Origin: a virus
Taxonomy: Duplodnaviria > Caudoviricetes
Virus record (IMG/VR): IMGVR_UViG_3300025018_000091
Reading direction: 5' to 3' (one strand)
DNA length: 64,000 nucleotides
Part shown: piece by piece, positions 1 to 16,619 of the stretch
Position numbering within the stretch: the stretch's first letter is position 1
Layout of the letters: the number at the start of each line of letters is the position of its first letter
Made by a program: the position numbers and the translations under genes
The notes under the pieces: model-generated
The model's input: the letters and a program-made list of their open reading frames with translations, nothing else
What the model was told of the DNA's origin: nothing
Database searches by the model: none

Positions 1-407
1 TTACAATTGGTTCAATTAAATTGATTATAGCCTCTGTGGCTCTAGTTACATCACCCATTATATTTCCTTAAGTAAAAGCAAGTAAATCTAAAACTTTTTC
101 AAATTGTTTCTCAGTATACTTCTTACCTTGAAATGAAAAGATCTTAGCATAAAGATCATATGCTACAATTATCCCAATATTAGTATCAGAAAAGGCTAAT
201 GTTCTGTAAAGAAAACACATATCCTCTTTTCTTTTATAAACTACAACCATCTGACCTAATTTAGATTCAATTTTGTTCTTTAACGGTACAACTATCTCTG
301 ATTCCATTATCTATACCGCACATTTTTATTAGTTAATTGGATTTTAGTTAAATCCAATGTTGCAGCTAATACAAAAATAATAATAAGAAAGAAATACAAA
401 ACTATTA

Positions 408-752
408 TCATAGATCATCAATATCCGTAGCAACGGTAACAGTATCATCAATAGAAGTAGTATCATCAACAGACGTAACAGATGTGGCTTTCTTGGTAGA
501 CTTTACACCCCTTTGACCCTTTATGACTCCACCATTCTTTCCACGTGTAACATACGCTAAATCAGTATTATGAACATAATGATTTACGAAATGAAGCACA
601 CTCTTAGGTTCCATTGCTACCATTAGCCCAACAGTTTTGGCAAGTTCCTTGATTTGGATTCTCTCACCGTCACTCATTCCATCTAAAACCTTCTCAGAAG
701 CATTAAAGATTAACTCTACGCCTTCTAACATATTTTTAATATTTTGACTCAT
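408..752 (-). CDS. small winged-helix-like DNA-binding protein (VTRGxxGG paralog family, copy 1)
   Basis: C-terminal YVTRGKNGGV resembles the Rrf2-type wing; three paralogs in window. Confidence 0.5.
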   Translation of the reverse strand: MSQNIKNMLEGVELIFNASEKVLDGMSDGERIQIKELAKTVGLMVAMEPKSVLHFVNHYVHNTDLAYVTRGKNGGVIKGQRGVKSTKKATSVTSVDDTTSIDDTVTVATDIDDL

Positions 753-797
753 TTTAATTCTCCAATTTAAATTTTTGGTATTCCAAGAAACACCCTA

Positions 798-825
798 AAT
801 CTAAACATTATCCAGCCGTAGTCAA
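798..825 (-). promoter_or_regulatory. sigma70-like promoter TTGACT-N16-TAGATT
   Basis: Intergenic, upstream of ORF 408-752; same 16-bp spacing as six other sites. Confidence 0.5.
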
Positions 826-840
826 GTACAAAATATTAAA

Positions 841-1389
841 TTAAATATCTAATCTTCCTCTAATTTCCTCATGTAATTCTTTATTAGCTAGATTAAAGTT
901 AGAAAATCTTTTATCTTCAGTGACTTCTTTTATTACTTTCAAGAAAGAAGGTATTTCTACTTTATCATTTATATCCTCTAATTCTATTTCAAGAACTGCC
1001 ATACCTTTTAATGCGCCTTTGAAAACATCTAGCTCAAATAATTGGTCATGATATTCGAATACAAATCTTGTTTTCTCAATAGGGACTTTATCTTCATTTG
1101 CTTTAGTTAGAAGTTTTTCATATATAGCTTTAGAGATTTCCTTTTCTTTTTCTTTATGAACTCCTGGTTCGACAGGTTCTTTTTGATTGAAATGATATAC
1201 TGTATCTGTATCTCCAGTCAATCCTTGAACTGTTTTTCTAACTCTTGCAGCCTGTTCTCCCTTAAGAGAAGTTAGATATGTTTGACTAATTCTTTTAACA
1301 TCTACTAAATTATCAAACATCTCAGATAAAGATGACCAAGACTTAGGAAATTTAACAAGAAATTTGCGTTCCTTTTCTAATTTTTCCAT
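841..1389 (-). CDS. CYTH domain protein (triphosphate tunnel metalloenzyme)
   Basis: EKERKFLV N-terminal ExExK motif, EKTRFVF, FELDVF, VLEIEL, DKRFSNFNLA. Confidence 0.9.
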   Translation of the reverse strand: MEKLEKERKFLVKFPKSWSSLSEMFDNLVDVKRISQTYLTSLKGEQAARVRKTVQGLTGDTDTVYHFNQKEPVEPGVHKEKEKEISKAIYEKLLTKANEDKVPIEKTRFVFEYHDQLFELDVFKGALKGMAVLEIELEDINDKVEIPSFLKVIKEVTEDKRFSNFNLANKELHEEIRGRLDI

Positions 1390-1416
1390 TTATTTTCCCA
1401 TAATAATAGTTAGATA

Positions 1417-1761
1417 GGAGTAAATCTATAAGCGGAGTCCTGTCTATAAATCGAGACAATCATTAATCTTGGCGAACAATTACTCATTCGCTCCAGCGTC
1501 AACCCGGAAACTCAGACGAGTAGTCCTCAATCATTTCCTGTTCGACTTGCAGCACATAGGGTTTGCAAATGCCACTCATATCACTATGAGTGCGGTAGGC
1601 TCTTACCCTGCCTTTTCAACCTTACCATTTTACTGGCGGTATGTTTTCTGTTGCACTTTCCGTCACCTCACAATGCCTGGGTGTTACCCAGTATGTCACT
1701 CTTTGCTGCTCCGACTTTCCTCATATAACCGCCGGTTATATGCGATTGTCCAATCTACTCC
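1417..1761 (-). ncRNA. rnpB: RNase P RNA, bacterial type A
   Basis: Minus strand: GGAGUAGAUU/AAUUUACUCC-type P1, GACAAUCG/UGAUUGUC P2, GAGGAAAGUCGGAG with ACAGGACUCCGCUUAU (P4), CUGGGUAACACCCAG, ACGGAAAGUGCAACAGAAAACAUACCGCC, GGUAAGAGCC, GCAAACCC...GCAAG. Confidence 0.95.
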
Positions 1762-1969
1762 CGTCTAACAAATCTTCGTATGCCATAATATAATCACTTC
1801 AATCGCGATGTCAATAACATGTGTTTTTTAAAAATTAAAACGTTGAAAATCTCTACAAAAATCCGAGAAAAATCATATTATTTGCGACACATGTACCAGT
1901 ATATTATTGAGGTAACCATGGTCGCATTACTAGTTGCATTAACTATTGTTGTTTGTTTATCAATAGAAA

Positions 1970-2488
1970 TTATTCTTCCCAAACATCACAAAGATAATCA
2001 ATAAAAAAATCAAAAGAAATTGGTGCAAATGCATATTTTCTTTTGTAATATTCACTATCTACTGCTTGCTGACTATCCATCTTATCAATTAATTTCAATT
2101 GAAGTTGACGGCTATACTTTCCAGCACAATTCCTAGAACAAAATGGACCAGCTTTGCCTTTTTTAGCCTTATCTCTAATTAATCTTGGACTTCTTTCAAA
2201 TGGTTTCCCGCACCAAGCACATTCAAATTTTACTTTTTTAACTCTTCGAGTATCATCAGCAGAATGTTGATCCCTAGGAACTATTCTTAGGTTTTTTAGA
2301 TCATTATTATCAATATTACTATCGATATGATCTACAGTTTCTAGATTAGGATCTAGTTTTCTGCCTAATTGTAATTCAAGAATCCACTTTGGATAAGATA
2401 CGGTACGACGTTTGCCATTGCGTTCAACCACAATTACGATTTGTCTACCATCTTTTCTCTTATATGGACCAAAAACCTTCATACACAA
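1970..2488 (-). CDS. HNH endonuclease
   Basis: ETVDHIDSNIDNNDLKNLRIVPRDQH plus CxxC zinc motifs. Confidence 0.85.
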   Translation of the reverse strand: MCMKVFGPYKRKDGRQIVIVVERNGKRRTVSYPKWILELQLGRKLDPNLETVDHIDSNIDNNDLKNLRIVPRDQHSADDTRRVKKVKFECAWCGKPFERSPRLIRDKAKKGKAGPFCSRNCAGKYSRQLQLKLIDKMDSQQAVDSEYYKRKYAFAPISFDFFIDYLCDVWEE

Positions 2489-2501
2489 TATGGGATTATA
2501 T

Positions 2502-3356
2502 TCACCAATCTGGATAATTTATAGGATCCTTATTAGTAGGAGACCATTTTAGAACCTTATCCTTGAGGTGCTTTGGAATTTTATTCCAATAAGCCAGCTC
2601 ACCAGAAGATAACTTTCGATCTTTACGAGCAACCATATTATAACCAAATGGTCTCTTCCAAATGTCCTTAATACCAATAACATTCCCTTCTTTATCCAAA
2701 ATATCTTCCTTAGTTAGATAAAGGTATTCAAGACTACTATATCCATAATTATAATGATATCCGGTTCTCCATTGGTACTTCCATTTTTCATGGTCACTAC
2801 CACGATGTTTCTTACTTTTAATCACTGGGACGAACCAATATGGTTTACCATCTACTAATCCAATAATTTTACCTCCAAGCCAATTGGTTAGCTCTTTAGT
2901 ATTAAACTTTGGAAGTTTTTCTTTCTTAGGTCTGGTCTTCCTGCGTTGAAGAACACCATTGTCATCTACATAGAAATCCCAACTAAAATATGAATATTTA
3001 TGACAAGAAGGATCTGGATAAATATCTACGCTATTCCTAATAATATTTTTAATTTCTCTATCATCAGTAGTTGAGACTACTTTTAGTTTAGCTACTAATT
3101 GAGAATGAACTTGATTCCAGGGTTCTCCAACATGAGAGTTTAACCAACGACGAATGGGACGCCAATAACCTGACCAATAACTTCCTCCCCACATAGGTTC
3201 TTTTTTTGCAATATCATATGATAGGGGTGCATCATCATCTATTTTAGCGCGAGTACAAAACTCACGTTCACTCAATCTTACTTGACGAGTAGTATATTTT
3301 TGTCTATGTTTATCCCAACCACTATCGGCACCATTATCTCTATGTGTTCTCGACAT
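2502..3356 (-). CDS. hypothetical phage protein
   Basis: 284-aa ORF with GGAGA RBS, preceded by the 24-bp motif. Confidence 0.75.
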   Translation of the reverse strand: MSRTHRDNGADSGWDKHRQKYTTRQVRLSEREFCTRAKIDDDAPLSYDIAKKEPMWGGSYWSGYWRPIRRWLNSHVGEPWNQVHSQLVAKLKVVSTTDDREIKNIIRNSVDIYPDPSCHKYSYFSWDFYVDDNGVLQRRKTRPKKEKLPKFNTKELTNWLGGKIIGLVDGKPYWFVPVIKSKKHRGSDHEKWKYQWRTGYHYNYGYSSLEYLYLTKEDILDKEGNVIGIKDIWKRPFGYNMVARKDRKLSSGELAYWNKIPKHLKDKVLKWSPTNKDPINYPDW

Positions 3357-3399
3357 ATATCATCTCCAAGTAATTAACATTAGTCTTACTAACACCGTA

Positions 3400-3421
3400 T
3401 TGCCCTGCTTACTCGATGGGG
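3400..3421 (-). promoter_or_regulatory. 24-bp dispersed upstream motif, copy 1
   Basis: TTGCCC-TGC-TTACTCGATGGGG on plus strand; 5 copies, all intergenic and upstream of minus-strand ORFs. Confidence 0.65.
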
Positions 3422-4848
3422 CGCGGCGACCTTCACTGAAATACAAATATAGTTTTAATTCTATTTATCGCTTTGTCTTGATCAAAATTAGCGAAATCAA
3501 ATAAATCTATATTCATTACTAATTTCTTTTCTTTAAAATTAAATATAACTCTATGTTCTAAATCAGTTTCATACACTTTTATTTCGGTTATTATATGACT
3601 ATCAACATAAGATTTAGTTATAGAATATTTACGATTTTCTTCGTAAAGATTCACACACTCTCTATCAATCTTAATTATAGGCTCCCATAATATCAAATCT
3701 ATCTTCTAATTTCTGAATATAAGCAGCTCTACCCGACTCTAATTCCTCTTCAAAATCTTCAGAAAGCCAATGTTTAGGAATTTCATATAATTCCCACTCA
3801 TCACCATTCTTCATAAGAATAATCATATCTTTAGTGTCTCTAAGACGAGGATAGTATTCAATTGTTAATGCAATAGAATCATGATAAACTGCCTTATCAA
3901 AAGAACCAACCTCTCCCTCATCAGCGCCTGGAAAATACCAAGTTCGATATTTCAAACTAAAAATTTTACAAATCTGCTGGGCTATATAAGTAATCCTATT
4001 ATGTAACAGGACATCATATTGACTTAATTTCTTGATAACTTCAGTGCGCTTTTCAAAAAACTCTTCATTTAACGGACTAACTTTACCAAAATCGTTCATT
4101 AACATTCTCCATGACAAAATGCATGTTGTATTTTCCCAGCGAAGCTGACCACTACAAATCCCTTAAAAGTATCTCCATCATCAACGGCTTCAGAAGCAAA
4201 CCTAAATTGTAGTGCCTGTTCGTTCATAGACTTAACACCCTCAAGTCTCCAGTTCTCAGGCTTTATTACCTCTAATTTAAGGAAGTCAACCATTCCACCA
4301 ACCTCTTCAAGCAACTCACCATAATCTCCATATGGAGCTATATTAATCATATCTTCAATAACAATATCCACATTATCATTAATGTAATCTGCTAGACGCT
4401 CATACATCTGATTAAAAGATAATCCAAGTTTTTCTTGCACTTTCTTTTCAATATCTTCAGCCTCATCCTCTTTTGTTATTTCTAAATCATTATATGACTC
4501 AATCATAATCTGTAGATTCCTTTTTATAAAAATCGTATAATGCTTGGTAATCTTTCTTAAAAACTTTCTTTGTGTCTTTAATCATTTGTTTTAAAATTTC
4601 TTTTTCTTCTTTCACATCTACGAAATCTACTTTTGTTTCTTTGGTATATTGTTCTTGCTGCCTAATCTCTCTAAAAGCAGCGGCTAAAGCGAATTGTTGA
4701 TAATCCATCCCAGCTATTACATCTGGGATACTAGGTTTTTCCCTTTTAACTTCCTCTAAATAAGAAGCGAAATCTTCTAGACAAACAGTTCTATTTTTTA
4801 CATAGTTCTCTCTATCTGTTATTCTATCTGGATCTTCCTTCTTCTTTT

Positions 4849-5481
4849 TCATCGAAAACTATAAGCCTTTTTTGTAATAGAAACAATATCACTAATATTT
4901 GCCATAGCTCCAATTCCAGTTGTCCCACAAGCCAATTTCTTAGAAATAGGCTCAACTAAAACAAATAGCCTCTTAGAAATTCCCGGAGAAACCCGTTCCA
5001 TATATCTGTGGAAATCAACATCACCATTTTTATAAAAACGATACATGTGTGTAAGTTCTTCTATATTACGATATGTTGCCGGATGATTCCACATATCAGT
5101 ATTCATTGCGGGAGCAACTACAATAGGCTTCTCTGCTTTCCATGCTCTAATTGTAGATGTCAATAGATTGTCAGACATTCCATGAGCAATCTTTGCTAGG
5201 GTGTTGGCTGTCAACGGTGCCACTACCAACACGTCTGCCCAATCTTTTAAATAGATATGAGGGATCATCATGGACCCGTCGTCGTTGACGCGCTCATACT
5301 TAATAGGAAATTCGTCTTGGTCGTGCCATGTGGGGCAATGATATGCTTCATCATCTACAAAATGTTTTGCAGAATCGGTCATAACAACATTAACTTCATG
5401 ACCATCATTCTGAAAAGCCATCACCATTTTAGGCGTAAGCTTTGCAGCAATGCTACCAGTAACTCCTAATAGAACTTTCAC
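4849..5481 (-). CDS. coaC: phosphopantothenoylcysteine decarboxylase (HFCD flavoprotein)
   Basis: MKVLLGVTGSIAA, HIYLKDWADVLVVAPLTANTLAKIAHG, APAMNTDMW; adjacent to coaB. Confidence 0.88.
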   Translation of the reverse strand: MKVLLGVTGSIAAKLTPKMVMAFQNDGHEVNVVMTDSAKHFVDDEAYHCPTWHDQDEFPIKYERVNDDGSMMIPHIYLKDWADVLVVAPLTANTLAKIAHGMSDNLLTSTIRAWKAEKPIVVAPAMNTDMWNHPATYRNIEELTHMYRFYKNGDVDFHRYMERVSPGISKRLFVLVEPISKKLACGTTGIGAMANISDIVSITKKAYSFR

Positions 5482-6191
5482 GGCTTCTCCCCTATAAAAA
5501 ATAACGTGTCATATAATCTTTTTGGCAAATCATTCCTATTACACCCAGAAAGATGATCTACTCCATTTTTATTGGAAACAATAAAAGCCCTATCTTTTGA
5601 CCATTCCAAACAATTTGCCACTATAATATCTGCACCTGAATGATGCATACTTTTTGTTGCAATATCCGCTAACTCTTCATCAGTCATTCCAACTTGAAGC
5701 TTGAACTTCACAAGCTTGCCTTTGAAGCCCCATGGATTACGAATCTTATCAATAATCTTTTCAGTAGGAACTAACTTCAAAAACAACTCATTAGCTGATG
5801 AAGAAATCTTCTTAGAAGAATCTATTTTCTCCATTCCAAAATATCCTTTTGAATTAGGAATATAAGTTCCCTCAACTTTATAGTCACTTACTGCCGCAGA
5901 ATGAATAACAACATCATAATCATTTGATATAATTTGTTCTTCCATTAAAGCACACAGCTCATCATATGTTTTATATGGAAGTATATTAATGTGCCTTATA
6001 TTTTCAACTAAATGATGATGTGGATTAGATGTAATTAACGTAACTTCATTTTGAAAATGAGAATCAATAGGCGCCTTATAACAAAAATATCTTGCTAATT
6101 CAGCTCCAGTTCTACCTTTAAAGATATTAGAAATACATCTTACCTTATCAATCATTACATTAGTAGAACCGGCAGTTATTAATATTTTCAT
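5478..6191 (-). CDS. coaB: phosphopantothenate-cysteine ligase
   Basis: MKILITAGST..ID.VRCISN...GRTG, HSAAVSDY, LVKFKL, ADIIVAN. Confidence 0.9.
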   Translation of the reverse strand: MKILITAGSTNVMIDKVRCISNIFKGRTGAELARYFCYKAPIDSHFQNEVTLITSNPHHHLVENIRHINILPYKTYDELCALMEEQIISNDYDVVIHSAAVSDYKVEGTYIPNSKGYFGMEKIDSSKKISSSANELFLKLVPTEKIIDKIRNPWGFKGKLVKFKLQVGMTDEELADIATKSMHHSGADIIVANCLEWSKDRAFIVSNKNGVDHLSGCNRNDLPKRLYDTLFFIGEKP

Positions 6192-6493
6192 GGTTTTCCT
6201 CTACTCCTACGTAATCTATCTTTATTCTTTTTAATTGTTACCTTACCGCCAGGATCTTGTTTAGAAATAAACTTAACCATCTTAGCAAAGACTTCATTGG
6301 TCATTAAAACTTCTGGAGTATTGTATTTCTCTTCTAATTCCTTATTGGAAAAACAAGCATGGATTGCTTTGTGGCAATCTCTACAAATTGTCTCTGTAGT
6401 TTTGCCACCCCTAGAACGCGGGACCATATGATGATCTGAAGGATAATAATTAAGTCTTTCGCATATTGGACATATCAAAAAAGAATCATCCAT
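6188..6493 (-). CDS. small HNH nuclease
   Basis: CPICER..SDHHMVPRSRGG....ICRDCHKAIH. Confidence 0.85.
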   Translation of the reverse strand: MDDSFLICPICERLNYYPSDHHMVPRSRGGKTTETICRDCHKAIHACFSNKELEEKYNTPEVLMTNEVFAKMVKFISKQDPGGKVTIKKNKDRLRRSRGKP

Positions 6494-6494
6494 T

Positions 6495-7328
6495 TTATTT
6501 AAGATTTGGTAAATGTAAATCTAGTTCATATCGAACTAACATATCAATTTGAATAACTAATCTTAATGGTAATGTAACTAGAAAACGAGGAGCAGAACCT
6601 AAAAAGTTCATAAGTTTCTTTTCTTCGTACCCCATTAGCGCATCTAACACTGATGTGTTGCGTTTCCTAATATCATCTAATTGCGTAGAATAATGAGGGT
6701 GCAATGATATCATATCTAAAACGCGAGAATCCTCATCAGAATTACTAGTACCAACACCTATTCCTTCTTTAATAAGAAAATCATAGACCAATGACTGAGT
6801 TTCAATATTAAACCTTTCATCTATAAGTTTTCTTATATTAGACTGACTATTAAGAGCATCTCTTAACTTATAGGCATGTTCTAGACATTTATAATAAAGA
6901 TTTAAATTCAAAGACCTATTTTTATATTCTTTCATATAATTAAGATCAATTGATTGCTCTTCAGTAATATCCAATGGGGTAGCATTGTCGCTATTTTTTA
7001 TAAAATCATCAAGAATATCTCGTAAATCTCCAACAGATATATCGTGAGTGTCATAATCTCTTGCTAATAGTAATTGTCCGTTATACATATGAAAATATGG
7101 AACAAGTATAGGAGTATTGCTCTGTTGTTTTATTTTTTGTAATTGTGCATCATGCATTAGCAAATACATAAATAATTTAATATCCCCACGTTTCCCGCTT
7201 GTAGTATGTGGGTTACTTGGTCTCATAGGTAATTCTTCTAGAAGTTTACACCAAGCCTCCTCAATACTTACCGGTACATCAGCCTTTTTAATATCATCTA
7301 ATAGTTCTTGATCATCAATCATAGACAT
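6495..7328 (-). CDS. hypothetical protein
   Basis: 277-aa open frame, no recognisable motif. Confidence 0.7.
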   Translation of the reverse strand: MSMIDDQELLDDIKKADVPVSIEEAWCKLLEELPMRPSNPHTTSGKRGDIKLFMYLLMHDAQLQKIKQQSNTPILVPYFHMYNGQLLLARDYDTHDISVGDLRDILDDFIKNSDNATPLDITEEQSIDLNYMKEYKNRSLNLNLYYKCLEHAYKLRDALNSQSNIRKLIDERFNIETQSLVYDFLIKEGIGVGTSNSDEDSRVLDMISLHPHYSTQLDDIRKRNTSVLDALMGYEEKKLMNFLGSAPRFLVTLPLRLVIQIDMLVRYELDLHLPNLK

Positions 7329-7362
7329 TAAATTTTCCCTTTTATAATATAGAATACAAATG

Positions 7363-7437
7363 TGGCAGGGATGCTAGGTGCTGCCCCTAATTTTGCGGAT
7401 TCAAAGTCCACGGTCCTAGCTGATGAACGACATCCCC
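7363..7437 (-). tRNA. tRNA-Gln(UUG)
   Basis: GUGGA-CU-UUG-AA-UCCGC arm, CCA encoded, non-canonical T loop (GGCAGCA). Confidence 0.82.
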
Positions 7438-7709
7438 ATTTTTAAATACTTAACTTCAATCCAACTATCAAACATATATGGTGGAATCCATATAGTGATA
7501 ACTCCGGTTTCTTTATTAAAAGAAACCGCTTTTAATTCATTAGATCGCGGTATACTAATGATCGAAACTACATCTTCTATGTTTGTATATGCAGCAGCTA
7601 TATTGTAATAATAACCAACTGCCCATGGTGGTATATAGAAGTTTTCTTTTATCAAATTTAATTCAGGTTTAATAACCGCAGGTATACGATATGGACTTTC
7701 CATACACCT

Positions 7710-7737
7710 AAATTAACCATGAAAAATAGCGCGTCAA
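7710..7737 (-). promoter_or_regulatory. sigma70-like promoter TTGACG-N16-TAATTT
   Basis: Intergenic, upstream of ORF 7416-7703. Confidence 0.5.
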
Positions 7738-7771
7738 GTATCTGCTCAATTTAATAATTTAATATCCATTT

Positions 7772-7847
7772 TGGTGGGCTATACAGGTAACGCTCCTGTG
7801 TTTACTCCATATCAGAGAGTCGTCGTAAACTTTTGGACCAATAGCCC
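7772..7847 (-). tRNA. tRNA-Ile(GAU)
   Basis: GGGCUAU/AUAGCCC-ACCA; ACUCU-CU-GAU-AU-GGAGU; atypical T loop. Confidence 0.82.
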
Positions 7848-7893
7848 ATTGTCAATGCTCGCTACAACCTTTAACGTATGGACCAAGCAATGC

Positions 7894-7969
7894 TGGTAGC
7901 AGAGACGGGAATTGCACACCGTGACCTCCTGGGTATGAACCAGACGAGCTGCTTCTGTTCTACTCTGCA
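7894..7969 (-). tRNA. tRNA-Met(CAU), initiator-like
   Basis: UCUGG-UU-CAU-AC-CCAGG; unpaired 1:72; CCA. Confidence 0.82.
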
Positions 7970-7980
7970 ATAACTTTCAA

Positions 7981-8565
7981 TTAATAAGGATACTTCTTCA
8001 TAACCTCATCATCTGTAGGTACGTCTTTATTAACCTTATATAGCGCTCTTGAGATTCTAGAAACGCTTATTCTTTCACCTTTAATACATCTACCAGTATC
8101 ATAAATAGATAAGCCTGATAGTATTCCATACTTCCTGCAACCGTTCATACTTCGATGCATTGCATGGATACCTGCTAACAAACACTTTTGTCTATCAGCA
8201 ATAAGCTCTGGTCCAGTCCAACCTTCTTTGGTTTTTCCTCGACCAATATTCATAGACATCATACACCAACTAGCTCCATTATCTCCTCGTTTTTTACCAG
8301 TAACAATCTCCTGTCTATAACCACCAGTTTCTTCTGATGATATTATTGCAACCAAAGCTGCTTCTTGCGCTCTTGCCCATTTACCACCAAACCATGGTGT
8401 ATGTGATGGATCATATACAATCAATTGTATATGACCCACTACTTCATTAACGTACTCAATGTGAGCAGCTTGAAGTGCTTCATCATTTGGATGCATTCTC
8501 TCTGGAGTAAAATTACCCAAGATAATAGATACCAACCAAATACGTAGTATTTGTACAGCAGTCAT
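7981..8565 (-). CDS. secreted lysozyme/transglycosylase-like protein
   Basis: N-terminal hydrophobic segment, helix ending in SSEETGG, GDNGASWCMMSMN resembling SLT GxMQ region. Confidence 0.4.
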   Translation of the reverse strand: MTAVQILRIWLVSIILGNFTPERMHPNDEALQAAHIEYVNEVVGHIQLIVYDPSHTPWFGGKWARAQEAALVAIISSEETGGYRQEIVTGKKRGDNGASWCMMSMNIGRGKTKEGWTGPELIADRQKCLLAGIHAMHRSMNGCRKYGILSGLSIYDTGRCIKGERISVSRISRALYKVNKDVPTDDEVMKKYPY

Positions 8566-8645
8566 TATACTCTCCTATTAAAATCAACTAATTAAATTTA
8601 TTTAATTAATCTACAGTATGAAGTATAAATGACTAAATATTGGCA

Positions 8646-8721
8646 TGGTGGTACATACTAGAGTTGAACTAGTATTTGCTGTTTATCAGACAACCGTCTT
8701 AGACCGTTGGACCAATGTACC
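8646..8721 (-). tRNA. tRNA-Ile(GAU)
   Basis: GGUACAU/AUGUACC-ACCA; loop CU-GAU-AA; UUCAA T loop. Confidence 0.9.
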
Positions 8722-8727
8722 ATAGAA

Positions 8728-8891
8728 GAAACAACTAAAATTTGAGTGATAGCATGCCTTTCGGCATCATCGCGTCTACCATTCCGCCACAATCTCAGAC
8801 CTCTCGGCACGTAGAGAAAGGAGGGATTCGAACCCTCATAACTGTTAAGTTAATGATTTTTCTAAATGTAATCACTACAGGCATTTGTTTC
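8728..8891 (-). ncRNA. Y-RNA-like ncRNA A with circularly permuted class II (Leu-type) tRNA domain
   Basis: GAAACAA-AUGCC-UGUAGUGAU-UACAU ... AUCACUCA-AAUUUUAG-UUGUUUC; inside, in order: variable arm, T arm GAGGG-UUCGAAU-CCCUC, acceptor-like stem, D arm GUGGCGGAAUGGUAGACGCG. Confidence 0.8.
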
Positions 8892-8892
8892 A

Positions 8893-8968
8893 TGGTGGTG
8901 CCCCTCGGGATCGAACCGAGATATCAGGATCTTCAGTCCCGCGCATGAGCCATCACTGCCAGAGCACC
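8893..8968 (-). tRNA. tRNA-Phe(GAA)
   Basis: CGGGA-CU-GAA-GA-UCCUG; CCA. Confidence 0.9.
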
Positions 8969-8990
8969 ATGAAGTCATTTATACGAAAGA

Positions 8991-9066
8991 TGGTGGTACC
9001 TACTGGATTTGAACCAGTGACGCCAAGTTCTTCAGACTTGCGCTCTGCCAACTGAGCTAAGGTACC
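8991..9066 (-). tRNA. tRNA-Phe(GAA)
   Basis: Canonical cloverleaf, CAAGU-CU-GAA-GA-ACUUG; CCA. Confidence 0.95.
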
Positions 9067-9162
9067 ATTGGTGGGGCATATTAGGAATCGGAGCCCCCGT
9101 CCCGAACATTGTTGTCATCCAACATCTCATATCGTAAGATATGATTTAATAATGTTGGCGTC

Positions 9163-9738
9163 CTAAATTTTAGTAAAATCTGCTGTGCTTCCAAAATCTA
9201 CATAAACATAATTACCATAAGTGTCTTGCATTATATTATCTGGATTCGCCTCAAAATCCCAAGGATCTAATCCAAGTTCACTCATCAATGTTTCTTTTAA
9301 GTTTTTAACTTTAACCGGATCTTTATTACCTTTAATTGGAAATACCCTGTCAGCAATATAATATGCTATCCATATTGGATTAGCAAATGAAGACACATCA
9401 CCAACTAATAACTTTTGACCTACCCTTACAGCTATTCCAGAATTATAAACATTGGTTATATGCTCTGACTTAATTGATTCCAATCCCTTAAGAAAAGAAA
9501 GAACCTTATCTTTTTTATTATCTGGTAACAAAAAGAACTTAATTATTTTATTATTACCATAATCATAAACTTCGCCTTCTGCACCCGCGCCAAGCATTTC
9601 CCCATGAGGAATTTGAACACCCAAAGATTTTTCAACTATATCTAATAAATCTGTATCATTAGATCTAAAACTATTATATAGTTCATCTAATTTCATTTCC
9701 CTTACAGGATTTTCATAAGATGTGCTCATCTCATCCAT
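9163..9738 (-). CDS. protein kinase-like protein
   Basis: LGAGAEGEVY Gly loop, IIK lysine, NPDNIM catalytic-like loop, VDFG; frame stays open upstream to ~9828. Confidence 0.65.
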   Translation of the reverse strand: MDEMSTSYENPVREMKLDELYNSFRSNDTDLLDIVEKSLGVQIPHGEMLGAGAEGEVYDYGNNKIIKFFLLPDNKKDKVLSFLKGLESIKSEHITNVYNSGIAVRVGQKLLVGDVSSFANPIWIAYYIADRVFPIKGNKDPVKVKNLKETLMSELGLDPWDFEANPDNIMQDTYGNYVYVDFGSTADFTKI

Positions 9739-9807
9739 CTCTTTTAATTTATCAAGATTAGAAATGAACCTATCTAAATCAAATAAGGTTGCATTTAATG
9801 TTCTATC

Positions 9808-9863
9808 TACAACCCCTTTAACTCCTTGAATTAATATTAATTCAAGGAGTTAAAGGGGTTGTA
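9808..9863. repeat. 56-bp perfect palindrome
   Basis: TACAACCCCTTTAACTCCTTGAATTAAT followed directly by its reverse complement. Confidence 0.95.
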
Positions 9864-10099
9864 TTGTATTATAGATGTTCCATCCTTGAGTTTCAAAAAA
9901 GAGTATATATATTCGCCGGAAGAATCATTTATAAAATCTGAATCTGTAAATACAAAATTATATCCTTTGTATTGAGAACCATTTCCTTCTTTGACTTGTT
10001 GGGCAAAATTATCTAAATCACTAGAGGCTAATGCTAAAAAAATACTCTGCTTGTTTTAATAAACTAACTGCGCGCATAATATAATGGCGTGTTATTAAT

Positions 10100-10210
10100 A
10101 ATTGACTGTACCAGTTTCACTCCTGGCATGGTGTACCTTTCCCAACTATTTCAGGGCGTTACTGTGACGAATTTCACCATAAAGGAATAGCCATCAGATG
10201 CCAGTCAATT
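10100..10210. ncRNA. unassigned structured RNA candidate
   Basis: Closed by AATTGACTG/CAGTCAATT, GC-richer than flanks, internal CTGGCAT/ATGCCAG pairing. Confidence 0.3.
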
Positions 10211-10253
10211 CCAGCGCTTCAATCGAGGTCGGTTCCTCGTACCATAACAGTCA

Positions 10254-10329
10254 TGGGTATACTATTGGACTTGCACCAATTCTTCACCTCGGGAAAGAGG
10301 GAGTGCTTACTACTTACACTAATATATAC
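10254..10329 (-). pseudogene. degenerate tRNA-like gene (6-nt anticodon loop)
   Basis: D arm, T arm UUGG-UGCAAGU-CCAA, CCA; CCUC-UUUCCC-GAGG. Confidence 0.5.
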
Positions 10330-10330
10330 T

Positions 10331-10400
10331 TGATATGTACCTCGGATTTGCACCGAAACTGACGGCTCAGCCGTTATGCAGCTCTTACATCAATACATAT
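10331..10400 (-). pseudogene. degenerate tRNA-like gene (5-nt anticodon loop)
   Basis: AUAUGUA/UACAUAU acceptor, UCGG-UGCAAAU-CCGA T arm. Confidence 0.45.
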
Positions 10401-10510
10401 GCCTTATCTACTTACTGAGTCGGACTCAAATAATATATAAGTTTATGATGTCTGTACACAACAAATATAAACTTGGGGTTCCCTATTCGAATATTCTACG
10501 GAAGTAGATT

Positions 10511-10587
10511 TGGTTGGACAGGTGGGAGTTGAACCCACTTCTAGATGTTTATAAGACATCCCTCCATGACCGATTGAGTTCTGTCCA
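10511..10587 (-). tRNA. tRNA-Ile(UAU)
   Basis: GAUGU-CU-UAU-AA-ACAUC; canonical T arm; CCA. Confidence 0.88.
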
Positions 10588-10599
10588 ATGATCATTTTA

Positions 10600-10676
10600 T
10601 GGTCGTATAGGTGGGAATCGAACCCGACTTCTAACTGCTTGTAAAACAATCCTCCATACCAATTGAGTTCTATACG
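10600..10676 (-). tRNA. tRNA-Val(UAC)
   Basis: AUUGU-UU-UAC-AA-GCAGU; D arm nearly identical to neighbouring Ile(UAU). Confidence 0.85.
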
Positions 10677-10680
10677 ATAA

Positions 10681-10755
10681 TGGCACCCCTGAGCGGAATC
10701 GAACCGCCCTCAATAGCGTGACAAGCTACCCGCCTCACCAGATGCGTACAAGGGT
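10681..10755 (-). tRNA. tRNA-Asp(GUC)
   Basis: GUAGC-UU-GUC-AC-GCUAU; G73; CCA. Confidence 0.88.
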
Positions 10756-11041
10756 ATTCTAAGCATGAATAAAACCATGCCAGAGGTTATACATTATATG
10801 TGCCATCTATCATAGATTTCAAAGTAGTTAATACTTCAATCTTACTAGGATAGCTGACAACAAATGTATTATGCTCATAACTAGCAATTCCAACATATTT
10901 TTGTGTTCGATTGTTATGACTCAACGTTATATCATAATCACACTTATTATACCAATCTAGTATTTCTAGCTTATTCATACATTCTCCATGTTAGATAAAT
11001 CTTTAGTATAAGATAATATGCATTGTTAATTACAAACAATT

Positions 11042-11117
11042 TGGTGGGACCAGAGGGATTTGAACCCTCATCAAACAGATTAAGAGTCTGCTATGTTTCC
11101 ATTGACACCATAGTCCC
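11042..11117 (-). tRNA. tRNA-Lys(CUU)
   Basis: GCAGA-CU-CUU-AA-UCUGU; CCA. Confidence 0.92.
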
Positions 11118-11120
11118 ATA

Positions 11121-11212
11121 CAATTACTACAAGTTCGTTGGCAACAGCGCTTCTTCGCTTCTCTACCTGTCTTATTGAGTTCATCAATTGTGCAACTTAC
11201 ACCAAGTAATTG
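11121..11212 (-). ncRNA. tRNA-derived ncRNA candidate, family 2 copy 1
   Basis: CAAUUACU/AGUAAUUG closing stem, D-arm-like UGGUGUAAG..GCAC, similar to 11530-11618. Confidence 0.4.
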
Positions 11213-11271
11213 CAAACACACGATACATCAGAGGCTGGTTAAACTATCACTTGAGTATCTTAGCGTGTCAG

Positions 11272-11342
11272 CGGAACTAGGGGGAATCGAACCCCCGCTT
11301 ATAGATCGACAATCTACAGTCCTACCATTAAACGATAGCTCC
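11272..11342 (-). tRNA. tRNA-Asp(GUC)
   Basis: GUAGA-UU-GUC-GA-UCUAU; CCA not encoded. Confidence 0.9.
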
Positions 11343-11344
11343 TA

Positions 11345-11450
11345 ATATCAGACAAAATATGTAAACATAAGGGAACCATCCCGTCAAGTTGGAATCGAAC
11401 CAAACTAGTTGTTGATTTGGTACAATGTAATGCTTACTGCATTCTGATAT
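11345..11450 (-). ncRNA. Y-RNA-like ncRNA D (T arm only)
   Basis: AUAUCAGA-AUGCA-GUAAGCAU-UACAU ... AUGUUUAC-AUAUUUUG-UCUGAUAU; internal UUGG-UUCGAUU-CCAA. Confidence 0.8.
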
Positions 11451-11525
11451 GGTGGGACCAGAGGGGGTCGAACCCTCACCGAACAGATTAAGAGTCTGGC
11501 ATGCTCCCATTAACACCACGGTCCC
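11450..11525 (-). tRNA. tRNA-Lys(CUU)
   Basis: CCAGA-CU-CUU-AA-UCUGU; paralog of 11042-11117. Confidence 0.92.
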
Positions 11526-11529
11526 ATTC

Positions 11530-11618
11530 GATTACGCTGGAGTCGGCAATAGCAGATCTTTACTATATCTCTCTCCAGTCCTAGAGTCAAGGTCTAGGCG
11601 CTCTTACGCTACATAACC
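11530..11618 (-). ncRNA. tRNA-derived ncRNA candidate, family 2 copy 2
   Basis: GGUUAUG/CGUAAUC closing stem, UAGCGUAAGAGCGC, CUAGA-CCUUGAC-UCUAG hairpin. Confidence 0.4.
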
Positions 11619-11650
11619 AAGGCTGTTTTATTCGAAGTCAACAACCTTTT

Positions 11651-11690
11651 TAGTAGGAAAGGGTGGATTTGAACCACCTTTTACTTTCCC
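11651..11690 (-). ncRNA. tRNA minihelix (acceptor stem plus T arm only)
   Basis: GGGAAAG-UAAAA-GGUGG-UUCAAAU-CCACC-CUUUCCU-A-CUA. Confidence 0.65.
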
Positions 11691-11693
11691 ATA

Positions 11694-11920
11694 ATAAACG
11701 ACAAAAATTTGCTAAGACACCGGCACATTGATGGTCTTTTCAGATTACATCCGTTCGCCCCGCACTTTTGAGTCAGTGACTCTCTAGAAGACAGCATTAC
11801 CTGTTACCTTCGACTTATGAATATTACTATTCAAATTAGCGCCATCGCGTAATTCCTCACGGAATCAGTAGCTACCTTAGGGTCATTATTGATATGTAGT
11901 CCTAACTTGCATTCGTTTAT
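11694..11920 (-). ncRNA. Y-RNA-like ncRNA E (long insert)
   Basis: AUAAACGA-AUGCAA-GUUAGGAC-UACAU ... GUCUUAGC-AAAUUUUUG-UCGUUUAU. Confidence 0.78.
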
Positions 11921-11997
11921 GGCTCCCGCACTAGGGTTTTCACCTAGAACCTCGCACCCTAATCTGGGTGGTACTCTGTATTTTGAGCTATACGGAA
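11920..11997 (-). pseudogene. tRNA-like gene with 6-nt anticodon loop
   Basis: Acceptor, D and T arms and CCA present; CACCC-AGAUUA-GGGUG. Confidence 0.6.
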
Positions 11998-12157
11998 TGG
12001 TCAACGGAAAAGGATTCGAACCTTTGACTACCCAGCACACTCAGAGTAACTATCATCGTCCTCAACATAATATATCGATCTATCATATTTGGTGTCGAAT
12101 AATCTTTAAACTAAATGCTTCTACTACTTGGTGCTCTGACCTCTGAGCTATCCGTCG
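11998..12157 (-). ncRNA. tRNA body with ~90-nt insert replacing the anticodon loop
   Basis: CGACGGA-UAGCUCAGAGGUCAGAGCA ... AAAGG-UUCGAAU-CCUUU-UCCGUUG-ACCA. Confidence 0.7.
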
Positions 12158-12162
12158 ATAAA

Positions 12163-12292
12163 GTAACAACAAGGATTTGAAGAGACTAGTTGTACTAGCG
12201 CCAGCTTCCCCATATAGTGGGGAATAAAGGAATCGGACCTTAATCGTTTATTGTATCAAAATAAAATGTAATCCCTTACATGCATTTGTTAC
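12163..12292 (-). ncRNA. Y-RNA-like ncRNA B with permuted tRNA-like domain
   Basis: GUAACAA-AUGCA-UGUAAGGGAU-UACAU ... AUCCUUG-UUGUUAC; T arm AAGG-UCCGAUU-CCUU then acceptor hairpin UUCCCCA-CUAUA-UGGGGAA. Confidence 0.75.
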
Positions 12293-12293
12293 G

Positions 12294-12376
12294 TGGTTTC
12301 CCCGCTAGGATTTGCACCTAGATTTTCTACTTAGTACGTACTTAAATAGATGTCCTAATTATTAGACGACAGAAAA
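12294..12376 (-). pseudogene. tRNA-like gene with 15-nt anticodon loop
   Basis: D arm UCGUCUAAUAAUUAGGAC, T arm CUAGG-UGCAAAU-CCUAG, CCA; loop UUAAGUACGUACUAA. Confidence 0.6.
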
Positions 12377-12380
12377 ATAC

Positions 12381-12452
12381 AATGCTTCTTCCTGGCTTCT
12401 ATTCCAGAATCTTCGCCCTAAGCGAGATAATAATTTATACTAAAAAAGCATT
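12381..12452 (-). pseudogene. highly degenerate tRNA-like gene
   Basis: AAUGCUU/AAGCAUU closing stem with cloverleaf-like spacing. Confidence 0.3.
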
Positions 12453-12529
12453 TGGTGCTTCCGTTCGCCTTTCGATAGCGAAATCTCCCAGGTTCATTCC
12501 GGGCGTTTTACCATTTAAACTACAGAAAC
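12453..12529 (-). pseudogene. tRNA-like gene with atypical anticodon and T loops
   Basis: GUUUCUG/CGGAAGC-ACCA; loop AAUGAAC lacks U33; 9-nt T loop. Confidence 0.55.
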
Positions 12530-12531
12530 AT

Positions 12532-12677
12532 AAGTGACAAGAAATATAAAGATTTTATTCGGCGCCCTGCACTTTTTCCTTTCGGACCACTTGTGCTATG
12601 ATTAGCTTTCACTAACCAGCAGGATTCGATACCTGCACCATCGGACATTTTTGATGTAATCCTTATTGCATTCACTT
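12532..12677 (-). ncRNA. Y-RNA-like ncRNA F with permuted tRNA-like domain
   Basis: AAGUGA-AUGCA-AUAAGGAU-UACAU ... AUCUUUAU-AUUUCUUG-UCACUU; GCAGG-UAUCGAAU-CCUGC then UGGUUAG-UGAAAG-CUAAUCA. Confidence 0.8.
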
Positions 12678-12763
12678 GGCTCTCAGGGCTGGATTCGAAC
12701 CAACGGTGCATTTCTACGGCGGATTAACAATCCGCTGCCTTGACCTGACTAGGCTACCTGAGA
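12677..12763 (-). tRNA. tRNA-Asn(GUU) with long variable arm
   Basis: GCGGA-UU-GUU-AA-UCCGC; Tyr-like D arm, 14-nt variable region; G73; CCA. Confidence 0.8.
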
Positions 12764-13083
12764 ATATTATACTCAATAAAAGACTCATTAAATATTGACA
12801 CATTTAGTGGAACTAACAACACTCCTTCATGAATCTCGGCATGACAATTATTACAAACTAAGATGCACTTTCGTAATTCAATTACGATTTTATTCCAACT
12901 TTTAGGACTTCCTCTAACTGCTCCCAAACCAAATTCTTTTTTAGAAGGATCTAAATGATGTAAAGATAATGCAGAAGAACATTTATTATATCCACAGAAG
13001 CAACATTTACCTCCCATTGCAAGTATAATTCTCTCTTTTGTGCGTTTTCTCCAACGCTTAACTTTCTCAGATTGCTTACTCAT
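12754..13083 (-). CDS. HNH endonuclease
   Basis: GGKCCFCGY..SLHHLDP...CILVCNNCHAEIH. Confidence 0.88.
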   Translation of the reverse strand: MSKQSEKVKRWRKRTKERIILAMGGKCCFCGYNKCSSALSLHHLDPSKKEFGLGAVRGSPKSWNKIVIELRKCILVCNNCHAEIHEGVLLVPLNVSIFNESFIEYNILR

Positions 13084-13097
13084 ACTTAGATATATAG

Positions 13098-13168
13098 CGA
13101 CCCCCCTCGGACTTGAACCGAGATTCGAAACTTAACAGGCTCCCGTTCTACCTTTGAACTAAAGGGTC
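13098..13168 (-). tRNA. tRNA-Asn(GUU)
   Basis: GGAGC-CU-GUU-AA-GUUUC; CCA not encoded. Confidence 0.85.
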
Positions 13169-13173
13169 AATTA

Positions 13174-13456
13174 TTGATGACAAAATTTGTAAAGATAATG
13201 GCTTTATCTTAAGTAACACTGACGTGCCTCAAGAGCCATAGTGTAAGTATCCCCTCAACACCATATGGAATGTAATTTATCCATTAACATCTTTTGGAAT
13301 ATACAATTAATACTCACTGCATATTTATGAGACATATAGTTTTCTAACGGGTTTACCATTCATTATGTTTCGGAATGGCGGGCATTTCTTATAAATAAGC
13401 ATTACCCATTTATTATCGGTTGTTGTATTTATGTAATCCTTACATGCATTCATCAA
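13174..13456 (-). ncRNA. Y-RNA-like ncRNA C (long AU-rich insert)
   Basis: UUGAUGA-AUGCA-UGUAAGGAU-UACAU ... AUCUUUACA-AAUUUUG-UCAUCAA. Confidence 0.78.
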
Positions 13457-13532
13457 TGGTGGGACCGGAGGGAATTGAACCCTCAACTTTCTGGTTAAAA
13501 GCCAGCTACTCTGCCAATTGAGTTACGGACCC
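13457..13532 (-). tRNA. tRNA-Lys(UUU)
   Basis: CUGG-CU-UUU-AA-CCAG; CCA. Confidence 0.92.
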
Positions 13533-13560
13533 GATTTGCGGATATCATCCGCAAGGGAAA

Positions 13561-13683
13561 CTATTTTTTAGTTGTTTGTTTGGTACTCTTAGAACTCTTG
13601 CTAGAGTTTTTATTGAGTTTTCGCCAACATGGTCGGCAATATTTACCGCCAAGTGAACGAGCAATCTCACATGCTTTACACAT
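13561..13683 (-). CDS. 40-aa basic CxxC..CxxC peptide (not in ORF track)
   Basis: GAGAGGAGGTG RBS then MCKACEIARSLGGKYCRPCWRKLNKNSSKSSKSTKQTTKK*. Confidence 0.55.
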   Translation of the reverse strand: MCKACEIARSLGGKYCRPCWRKLNKNSSKSSKSTKQTTKK

Positions 13684-13761
13684 AGTTCACCTCCTCTCAT
13701 TGAGTGGAGGTCACTAACTGTCAACTAAATAAACCATGAATTCTCCTTGAATAGAATTATT

Positions 13762-13906
13762 GTAGCAACGAAAATTTGTGAGACTATTTTTAACGTGTGC
13801 TGCCGCTACACTAACCCAAGATATAAAGTAAATTGGTCTTGGGTGCGGGAATCGGACCCGCCCTTCGTGCGCCCAATGCAATGTAATCCCAACATGCATT
13901 TGCTAC
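13762..13906 (-). ncRNA. Y-RNA-like ncRNA I with complete permuted T-acceptor-D domain
   Basis: GUAGCAA-AUGCA-UGUUGGGAU-UACAU ... GUCUCACA-AAUUUUCG-UUGCUAC; GCGGG-UCCGAUU-CCCGC, ACCCAAGA/UCUUGGGU hairpin, D arm UAGUGUAGCGGCAGCACAC. Confidence 0.85.
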
Positions 13907-13907
13907 T

Positions 13908-13982
13908 TGGTGGTCTCACTAGGACTTTCACCTAGACCGCCTCCTGAAATGGAGGTATTCATAAAACTTAAACTACAAGACC
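13908..13982 (-). pseudogene. tRNA-like gene with 6-nt anticodon loop
   Basis: GGUCUUG/UGAGACC-ACCA; CCUCC-AUUUCA-GGAGG. Confidence 0.6.
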
Positions 13983-13983
13983 A

Positions 13984-14080
13984 TGACGCTATAAACTTAT
14001 TTATTTGGTAGCGTCAGCGGGACTCGGACCCACAACCTCGTTCTTATAAATGAAATGTAATCCCTACAAGCATTTGCTAT
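13984..14080 (-). ncRNA. Y-RNA-like ncRNA J (5' module, T arm and acceptor hairpin; 3' strand not found)
   Basis: AUAGCAA-AUGCU-UGUAGGGAU-UACAU, GUGGG-UCCGAGU-CCCGC, UGACGCU-ACCA...AGCGUCA. Confidence 0.6.
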
Positions 14081-14081
14081 A

Positions 14082-14154
14082 TGGTCGCGAGACTGTGGGA
14101 TGAGCACAGATTTCCACCCTAAAAGTGGCGAGCTATCATTTACTCCATCTCGCA
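14082..14154 (-). pseudogene. tRNA-like gene, nominal anticodon UUA
   Basis: CCAC-UUUUAGG-GUGG; T loop CUCAUCC is non-canonical; CCA. Confidence 0.55.
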
Positions 14155-14155
14155 A

Positions 14156-14227
14156 TGGATGCGGAGGCAAGAATTGAACTTGCAGAATCTAGCTTATGAG
14201 ACTAGGTTGGGACCGTCTCTCCCCGCT
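14156..14227 (-). tRNA. tRNA-Met(CAU), reduced D arm
   Basis: CUAGU-CU-CAU-AA-GCUAG; A1:A72 mismatch; CCA. Confidence 0.75.
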
Positions 14228-14252
14228 ATAAAATAATGTATGATATACATCA

Positions 14253-14326
14253 TGGTGGAGCGTAGGGGTTACCCTCCCCTTCTTCTGCGGTGCAAGCGCA
14301 GCGTATTCGTATCCTACTCACGCCCC
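14253..14326 (-). tRNA. tRNA-Ala(UGC)
   Basis: G3:U70, CUGCG-CU-UGC-AC-CGCAG; atypical T loop. Confidence 0.82.
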
Positions 14327-14385
14327 ATATTATCTATGCATATAGTGGAATAAAATTAACTTGCACAAAATAGGAAAACTCCACT

Positions 14386-14880
14386 ATGGCTAAAACGAAA
14401 ACTAACTGTTTAAATTGTAACAAAGAAATTTATGTTGAAAACAAAGAAATTAAAAGAGGTTTTGGAAAATTTTGTAATTCCAAATGTTCTAGTGAACATA
14501 GAATTCGTAATAAACCAAAATTGCTAGATAATGTAAATTGTGCCCTATGCAATAAATCTTTTCATATGACCGAAAGTAAAAAAAAGTTATCAAAATCTGG
14601 ATTATATTTTTGTTGTCGAACACATAAAGATGAAGCACAACGCATTGGTGGTATAAAAGAAATTATGCCGCTACATTATGGCACCGCCAAACCAGACAAT
14701 TCTCGTTCTTATAGAAGAATAGCTTTCAATGAAAAAGCTAAAATGTGTGAAAGATGTGGATATGATCAACACGAAGCTGCGATAATTGTTCACCACAAAG
14801 ATAGCAACAGAGACAATAATAATCTAGATAATCTTGAAATATTGTGTGCTAATTGTCACGCTATAGAACATTGGAGCTGA
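14386..14880 (+). CDS. HNH homing endonuclease
   Basis: CERCGY..IVHHKDSNRDNNNLDNLEILCANCHAIEH. Confidence 0.9.
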   Translation: MAKTKTNCLNCNKEIYVENKEIKRGFGKFCNSKCSSEHRIRNKPKLLDNVNCALCNKSFHMTESKKKLSKSGLYFCCRTHKDEAQRIGGIKEIMPLHYGTAKPDNSRSYRRIAFNEKAKMCERCGYDQHEAAIIVHHKDSNRDNNNLDNLEILCANCHAIEHWS

Positions 14881-14903
14881 TGCCCGTGGAACTACATCTC
14901 ATT

Positions 14904-14977
14904 TGGTGACGCATAGGAGAGTCGAACTCCTCTTCGTAGATTGAAAGCCTAATGTCCTACCGATAGACGAACGCGCC
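14904..14977 (-). tRNA. tRNA-Glu(UUC)
   Basis: loop CU-UUC-AA; canonical D and T arms; CCA. Confidence 0.88.
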
Positions 14978-15064
14978 ATAACTATGATAAAATCACCGGA
15001 GTTGCGCCGGATATTGTCCTCACGAACAATATTGAATACCATCGACCCTAATTCTATCAATTTG

Positions 15065-15137
15065 TCAGAGAGAGAGGATTTGAACCTCCACCACATGGAT
15101 CCAAACCATGGACGCTACCAGATTACGCTACTCCCTG
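15065..15137 (-). tRNA. tRNA-Pro(UGG)
   Basis: CAUGG-UU-UGG-AU-CCAUG; CCA not encoded. Confidence 0.88.
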
Positions 15138-15247
15138 ATTGAGTCGCCCTAAGAGATATGTTCTAAACTAACTCCTTGGGCGGATTAGGTTTAGCCAATC
15201 AATCTCTATTATTCCCAAACCTATGCGGGCTGAACATAGGTCTTTCG

Positions 15248-15323
15248 TGGTCGGAATGAGAAGACTCGAACTTCCGATACCTTGTACCCAAAACAAGTGC
15301 CATAGCCACTAGGCGACATTCCG
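15248..15323 (-). tRNA. tRNA-Pro(UGG)
   Basis: CUUGU-UU-UGG-GU-ACAAG; CCA. Confidence 0.92.
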
Positions 15324-15424
15324 ATATACTTCTGCTCTCCAACTTTCTGTTACGCTTCAAAAGTAAAAGGTAACTTCTATTAATAAGTATCGTACGTTAG
15401 ACTTGGAATTAAGTACGTATACTT

Positions 15425-16613: not shown

Positions 16614-16619
16614 TTAGCT

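Follow-up and report, generated by a model that had tools for sequence, protein, structure and literature searches.

RNase P RNA is regarded as a cellular and organellar hallmark. The type A RNA of E. coli (M1 RNA, encoded by rnpB) comprises helices P1-P18, including P13/P14 and P15-P17 with its GGU, the P4 and P6 pseudoknots, the GNRA loops L9, L14 and L18, and five conserved regions, and in all of these respects the phage RNA described here is alike. Bacterial-type RNase P RNAs are also encoded by the plastids of some algae, by cyanelles and by some mitochondria, with no gene for the protein subunit. The likeness here is that an RNase P RNA is carried by a small dependent genome, where it presumably serves that genome's own tRNAs; the organellar RNAs, however, are usually reduced, AT-rich and often inactive alone, whereas the phage RNA is full-size, canonical and viral. 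Among viruses, the sole RNase P-like RNA that we found in the literature is that of the orthopoxviruses (camelpox), for which a review describes partial structural similarity and no pre-tRNA cleavage in vitro (PMC3001073). In contrast, the phage RNA is a full, high-scoring member of Rfam family RF00010 (RNaseP_bact_a). Its genomic setting and logic are those of the tRNA arrays and tmRNA genes of huge phages, which carry dozens of tRNAs and sometimes a tmRNA. An Rfam survey of megaphage genomes lists tRNAs and a tmRNA only, with RNase P RNA unreported, and some workers use RNase P RNA to gauge how complete a cellular genome is (PMC8172020). We found no description of a phage RNase P RNA in the searchable papers on phages, in keeping with the sequence-only reading of this DNA, in which such RNAs were said to be rarely reported in viruses.

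The whole stretch of DNA analysed here (64 kb; the window) contains, at 1413-1761 on the minus strand, a gene for RNase P RNA of the bacterial type A, complete and residing in the genome of a huge phage. An Rfam scan of the whole window gave one match to RF00010, running from 1761 to 1413 with 278.2 bits (E-value 8.6e-90) against a gathering score of 100 bits, so that the gene is a true member of type A. The alignment spans model positions 1-367 of 367 and is not truncated, and RF00010 beats the class B model in clan competition at this locus. The gene is 345-349 nt long, depending on where the 3' end is set; P1 closes at about 1417, and the gene first delineated from the sequence (1417-1761) is the Rfam gene minus a 4-nt 3' tail.

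Mapping the RF00010 structure line onto the window RNA gave 98 nested pairs, 95 of them canonical. The universally conserved regions, already noted as present in the sequence-only reading, are indeed all there, each of the five (GAGGAAAGUC, ACAGAAAACA, GGUAAGGUUGAAAAGG, AGAUUAAUG and ACAGGACUCCGCUUA) aligning to the consensus. All of the type A-specific elements (the P6 pseudoknot, P16/P17, P13/P14 and P18) could be mapped, the GNRA loops are GUGA in L9, GUGA in L14 and GUAA in L18, and the GCAAG of J5/15 is present. The GGU of the L15/16 loop, which in type A RNAs base-pairs with the 3'-CCA of the tRNA, lies at 1502-1504 (minus strand) within CCGGGUU (1502-1507), and we take its role to be that of G292/G293 of E. 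coli; of the 12 phage RNAs examined, 11 retain the CGGGUU motif. Throughout the specificity domain (P7-P14, J11/12, J12/13 and the GNRA loops L9 and L14) the RNA is canonical and follows the bacterial consensus, P12 alone being shortened, here to a minimal hairpin. Compared with bacterial type A RNAs, the phage RNA is compact (about 345 nt). P12 takes the opposite course in three related phage RNAs (L027:1002-1492, L034:554-1036 and L012:~770-1270), where an insertion of about 150 nt occupies columns 139-316 of the alignment A1 described below and brings the total to 483-500 nt; a fourth (L003) has a P12 extension of intermediate size.

A plus-strand ORF of 99 codons with a TTG start (1469-1768) overlies the RNA gene, and had been considered a mis-call. 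The open frame does exist, and it is the one point in favour of reading the locus as a protein-coding gene. Against this, the frame is antisense to the 278-bit RNA match, its tblastn matches are short pieces within other RNase P RNA genes and nothing else, and the substitutions among relatives track base pairs rather than codons. The RF00010 match and this substitution pattern contradict a coding function, to which we assign virtually no chance; we regard the ORF as spurious.

The P4 and P6 pseudoknots are not scored as pairs by the RF00010 model and were checked by hand. The 5' strand of P4, in the catalytic core, is AAG[U]CGGAG (1709-1717, minus strand) with its bulged U, and the 3' strand is CUCCGCUU (1430-1437, minus strand). 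The helix GAGGAAAG[U]CGGAG x CUCCGCUU forms 8 of 8 Watson-Crick pairs, retains the bulged U and is flanked by the conserved J3/4 adenosines. The compensatory change reported for P4 in the sequence-only reading is borne out, since GUCGGAG/CUCCGC differs from the consensus (GUCCGGG/CCCGGC) by two exchanged pairs, both compensated. The covariance model leaves P4 unpaired (CS line), so these pairs contribute nothing to the RF00010 score and count as separate evidence. P6 is formed by GAGU (1698-1701, minus strand) and ACUC in the P17 loop (1518-1521, minus strand). It covaries in the relatives, where CAAC/GUUG, GGAC/GUCC, ACAC/GUGU, GAAC/GUUC and GAGC/GCUC are found, so that at least six different complementary 4-mers occur among the phage RNAs.

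Eight related IMG/VR huge-phage contigs carry the RNA at 72-77% identity and with synteny conserved, and the time over which a huge-phage clade has inherited the gene has thus sufficed for this divergence. The mapped structure was counted on an alignment (A1) of nine phage RNase P RNAs, in which 92.1% of the cells pair, compared with 32-42% when the partners are slid by 1-3 columns. Changes on both sides are seen at 61 of 106 pairs, and none of 500 shuffles of A1 reached the observed values. P4 is invariant in the nine homologues, which says little since the P4 5' strand had served as the query by which they were collected. Over this divergence the secondary structure and the P4/P6 pseudoknots have been preserved by compensatory substitutions. 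One might suppose that a captured host gene has lost its function and is drifting as a pseudogene, in line with the reduced P12 of the window RNA and the 3 of 98 mapped pairs that are non-canonical. A drifting sequence would lose pairing, however, and what is seen is compensatory double change at more than half of the pairs across the relatives, with P4 invariant, P6 covarying and every conserved region intact, which makes a pseudogene highly improbable. The compensatory pairing and the varied P6 point instead to a functional RNA inherited through a diverging lineage, and not to a recent capture or a pseudogene.

The larger ORFs of the window match phage families, among them an exonuclease, endonuclease VII, methyltransferases and Ro60. 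Ro60 is represented by a homologue with TROVE and vWA_Ro60 domains (22951-24522), and the window further encodes a microbial-type PARG (20905-21756) and CoaB/CoaC (DFP and Flavoprotein), the latter as two adjacent ORFs (4849-6191). A megablast search of window positions 1-12000 and a blastn search with the RNA gave no match among the INPHARED phage records, and a 47-nt piece of the RNA had no exact match in IMG/VR.

Since a cellular RNA gene in viral sequence may be suspected of being an artefact, its residence in phage DNA was investigated in several ways. Homologues of the flanking ORFs surround the RF00010 gene in six IMG/VR contigs (L033, L004, L003, L039, L012 and L027). The parent records of four related contigs (L003, L004, L039 and L031) are 267-481 kb long and have one RF00010 copy each, located 36-95 kb from the contig end; each has 55-65 tRNAs and a terminase-like ORF, and no SSU (16S) rRNA was found in these four records. 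In addition, Logan contigs, all of them DNA assemblies of public runs, from four aquifer or subsurface samples (X1-X4) reach across the junctions between the RNA and phage genes, and both junctions are bridged. Two contigs from X1, the probable source sample, cover 1-1728 and 1699-4500 with zero differences, at depths of 18 and 18.4 and with an overlap of 30 nt. The contigs from X2 and X4 match exactly over 1388-1677 and 1354-1504, respectively, and that from X3, covering 1043-1731, belongs to a related, diverged strain.

These data bear on the suggestion that a host rnpB fragment was mis-assembled onto phage DNA, or that the RNA lies in the host flank of a provirus. Two related records (G001 and G003) are indeed labelled provirus by IMG/VR, and the Logan assembly of X1 breaks inside the RNA, at 1699-1728. 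Nevertheless, each of the two X1 contigs runs at equal depth from inside the RNA into phage genes, the same junctions recur in three other samples, phage-gene synteny is kept in at least six related contigs, and the single copies lie well inside the four large records rather than at an edge. A donor search by BLAST against 401 Bacillota genomes returned the conserved core only, the best match having 93 bits over 125 nt, compared with 241 bits over 349 nt (77% identity) for the RNA of phage L033. The bridging of both junctions by independent assemblies, the synteny in related phages and the internal single copies exclude the host-derived chimera that the sequence-only reading had named as a possible source of error, and we give this explanation almost no credence. 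It is close to certain that the RNA is a real phage gene under selection.

Upstream of the RNA, at 1970-2488 on the minus strand, is a gene for a 172-aa protein with an HNH_3 domain (Pfam E-value 8e-7; phrog_14913, E-value 3e-22) and a C-terminal zinc ribbon. In seven related contigs (L002, L038, L039, L033, L012, L004 and L003) a homologue with 72-79% identity likewise lies upstream of the RNA gene, at a distance of 1-2.5 kb; identity at this level across phages is unusual for a homing endonuclease. The gene for a 182-aa protein begins 24 nt downstream of the RNA (841-1389, minus strand). It matches PDB entries 2FBL/3TYP (NE1496; E-value 2e-6) over residues 75-168, the first of which we take to be a CYTH protein, and its N-terminus has EKERK at residues 5-9, an ExExK motif. 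Pfam gave no match at an E-value of 0.1 or better, and NCBIfam gave none. On the strength of the PDB similarity and the N-terminal motif the label of a CYTH-like (triphosphate tunnel) protein appears reasonable, as given in the sequence-only reading, where the RNA gene was placed between a CYTH gene and an HNH gene. CYTH-like homologues with 66% identity are present in L033 and L004, and a neighbouring 114-aa ORF (P0001) is also common to the related contigs.

A sigma-70-like promoter sequence, TTGACA-16/18-TATATT/TATTAT, is located at 1785-1814 on the minus strand, ending at 1787 or 1785, about 20 nt before the mature 5' end; it has 11 of 12 consensus matches, as a pattern match only. The site is missing from L033, the closest IMG/VR relative, and from the strain in sample X3, and was therefore rejected as a conserved feature. 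In the latter strain the 187-nt spacer (1785-1971) is replaced by 50 unrelated bases, with the HNH gene and the 5' end of the RNA still in place on either side. No terminator was predicted between the RNA and the CYTH-like gene.

The affiliation of the RNA was examined in trees in which the bacterial sequences are almost entirely Bacillota, so that the virus-only grouping is provisional and no donor can be named. The window RNA falls in a virus-only group of eight (SH-aLRT 99), which is nested in a larger virus-only group together with phage RNAs having canonical P4 (support 85-94). This position, in a virus-only branch of a limited tree, sets it apart from bacterial type A RNAs, as does a P4 helix (GUCGGAG/CUCCGC) which, in the genomes scanned, is mostly a clostridial feature. 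In bacterial rnpB the variant GAGGAAAGUCGGAGC was almost entirely confined, within those genomes, to Clostridia (Clostridiaceae, Peptostreptococcaceae and Syntrophomonadaceae), with a few Myxococcota, and the best of the bacterial copies with this P4 variant scored 124 bits against the window RNA, which is thus closer to the phage copies (241 bits for L033) than to any of these. Within the tree, the phage RNAs with GUCGGAG nest among those with canonical P4, with moderate support (85-94). Judging from this topology, the compensatory change in P4 may have arisen inside the viral lineage, in parallel to Clostridia.

RF00010 scores above threshold in 26 IMG/VR contigs, and RNase P RNA genes are therefore widespread among large uncultured phages. 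The variant P4 pattern gave 50 IMG/VR matches, of which 12 are RF00010 genes. The canonical pattern gave 76, 45 of them with both P4 strands at the right spacing; 17 of these candidates were tested (15 in tRNA-rich loci and two very large contigs without tRNA in the fetched stretch) and 14 proved to be RF00010 genes, in contigs which had been picked for lying among tRNA genes.

Several arrangements in these contigs may be mentioned. In several of them, for example L031 (6569-7079) and L209 (727-1224), the RNase P RNA is wedged between two tRNAs with 0-4 nt on each side, so that processing of these tRNAs by RNase P and RNase Z would set it free with exact ends. In a phage contig of 317 kb, a tmRNA (RF00023, 124 bits; L046:3697-4050) and the RNase P RNA are 2 kb apart, and a partial tmRNA is present at the end of another contig (L014:1-76). 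Another phage contig, of 202 kb, has a group I intron (RF00028, 68 bits; L221:3325-3528) at 3 kb from its RNase P RNA. Lastly, the tRNA array of a 191-kb contig includes what appears to be a short form, with a 207-nt RF00010 match of 118.5 bits (L237:10596-10802).

Unlike its bacterial type A counterparts, the RNA is virus-encoded, and neither the window nor any of five related records supplies an rnpA partner. No rnpA was found in the 64-kb window when all six-frame ORFs of at least 40 aa were searched with an HMM of five bacterial RnpA proteins (best E-value 0.24), in agreement with the sequence-only reading; similarly, a search for PF00825 (RnpA) whose control found the family in 10 bacteria gave nothing in the five related phage records, including two that are 99-100% complete. 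The conserved 114-aa neighbour (P0001) was considered for its size as an RnpA substitute and rejected, being not basic and having an acidic tail. RnpA proteins and RNase P RNAs of different bacterial species are known to reconstitute with one another, which makes compatibility with the RnpA of the host reasonable. Given that neither the window nor the complete relatives encode RnpA, use of the host protein is the simplest interpretation, and we infer as much.

The substrates would be close at hand. ARAGORN found 23 tRNAs in the window, all on the strand of the RNase P RNA, and 19 of them form the main array (7772-17134, minus strand), the presumed substrates. The 3' CCA is encoded in 19 of the 23, which fits the retained GGU of L15. 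When the flanks of all 23 tRNA genes (7772-57075) were counted, T was found at -1 in 19 (P 1e-6) and AT at -2/-1 in 18 (P 7e-14); this AT, together with the CCA, looks like a conserved RNase P cleavage-site context. A leader U(-1) is read by type A RNase P RNA through J5/15. Odd T-loops occur in a few tRNA-like genes (7772, 13908, 17059 and 50722), and the sequence-only reading had gone on to propose relaxed T-loop specificity. This part of its proposal finds no support: with a canonical specificity domain, nothing points to relaxed reading of the T-loop. Its more general suggestion, that the RNA serves the tRNA/ncRNA cluster of the phage, is plausible.

We propose that the RNA would be made during infection, with transcription either starting at the sigma-70-like promoter (1814-1785) or reading through the block of co-oriented genes, and that its ends would be trimmed by cellular nucleases. 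The phage RNA would then bind the host RnpA protein and act as the catalytic subunit that removes the 5' leaders of phage pre-tRNAs and of tRNA-shaped elements, thereby raising or securing RNase P capacity for a genome expressing dozens of tRNAs. Substrate recognition would be that of an ordinary type A RNA, with the GGU of L15 pairing with the encoded CCA, J5/15 reading U(-1) and the canonical specificity domain reading the T/D-loop elbow. Such a catalytic role, with host RnpA and on phage pre-tRNAs, is probably the correct interpretation.

Two other functions may be weighed against a catalytic role with host RnpA. The RNA could be a decoy or regulator that sequesters host RnpA or competes with the host RNase P, and so halts the maturation of host tRNAs. 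As no rnpA is encoded, the phage RNA must in any event compete for the host protein, and a possible decoy function has been discussed for the orthopoxvirus RNase P-like RNA (PMC3001073). A decoy would need a protein-binding surface only, though, and here the catalytic core and the substrate-binding motifs (the bulged U of P4, J5/15, the GGU of L15 and the S-domain) are conserved under selection; moreover, the phage's own tRNAs, at least 23 in number, need RNase P too. We consider a decoy very unlikely. Rather less improbable, yet still unlikely, is that the RNA is catalytically active with a protein of the phage other than RnpA, or protein-free, as a phage-dedicated enzyme with preferences of its own, such as tRNA-flanked Y RNAs and tRNA mimics. 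The lack of rnpA in the window and in the complete relatives would agree with this, as would the many conserved neighbours without assigned function, in particular the HNH/zinc-ribbon protein of 172 aa, which keeps both its identity and its place upstream of the RNA. No candidate protein was found, however, P0001 with its acidic tail being unlike RnpA, the specificity domain is canonical, and the conserved synteny may merely reflect general collinearity.

A broader version of the catalytic role would be that huge phages run their own tRNA-maturation enzyme, a phage-dedicated holoenzyme built with commandeered host RnpA or with an unrecognised phage protein, and needed to cut transcripts punctuated by tRNAs, Y RNAs and tRNA mimics. 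We regard this as doubtful. If true, RNA processing in these phages would be independent of, or dominant over, the host enzyme, and virus-only lineages of RNase P RNA would have had a long evolution, in which they rewrote the catalytic P4 helix through compensatory changes of their own.

The RNA itself is a typical representative of a known family; what is unreported is the kind of genome that carries it. One practical consequence is that a match to RF00010 alone does not prove a contig to be cellular. For structure-function work, natural variants of the catalytic core, such as the GUCGGAG/CUCCGC form of P4, are available in the virus-only lineages, and the RNA is an experimentally easy test case for RNase P cleavage. 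The finding extends the translation-related functions carried by viruses to a catalytic RNA and, the host enzyme being stable, raises the question of why a phage would need extra or private RNase P capacity.
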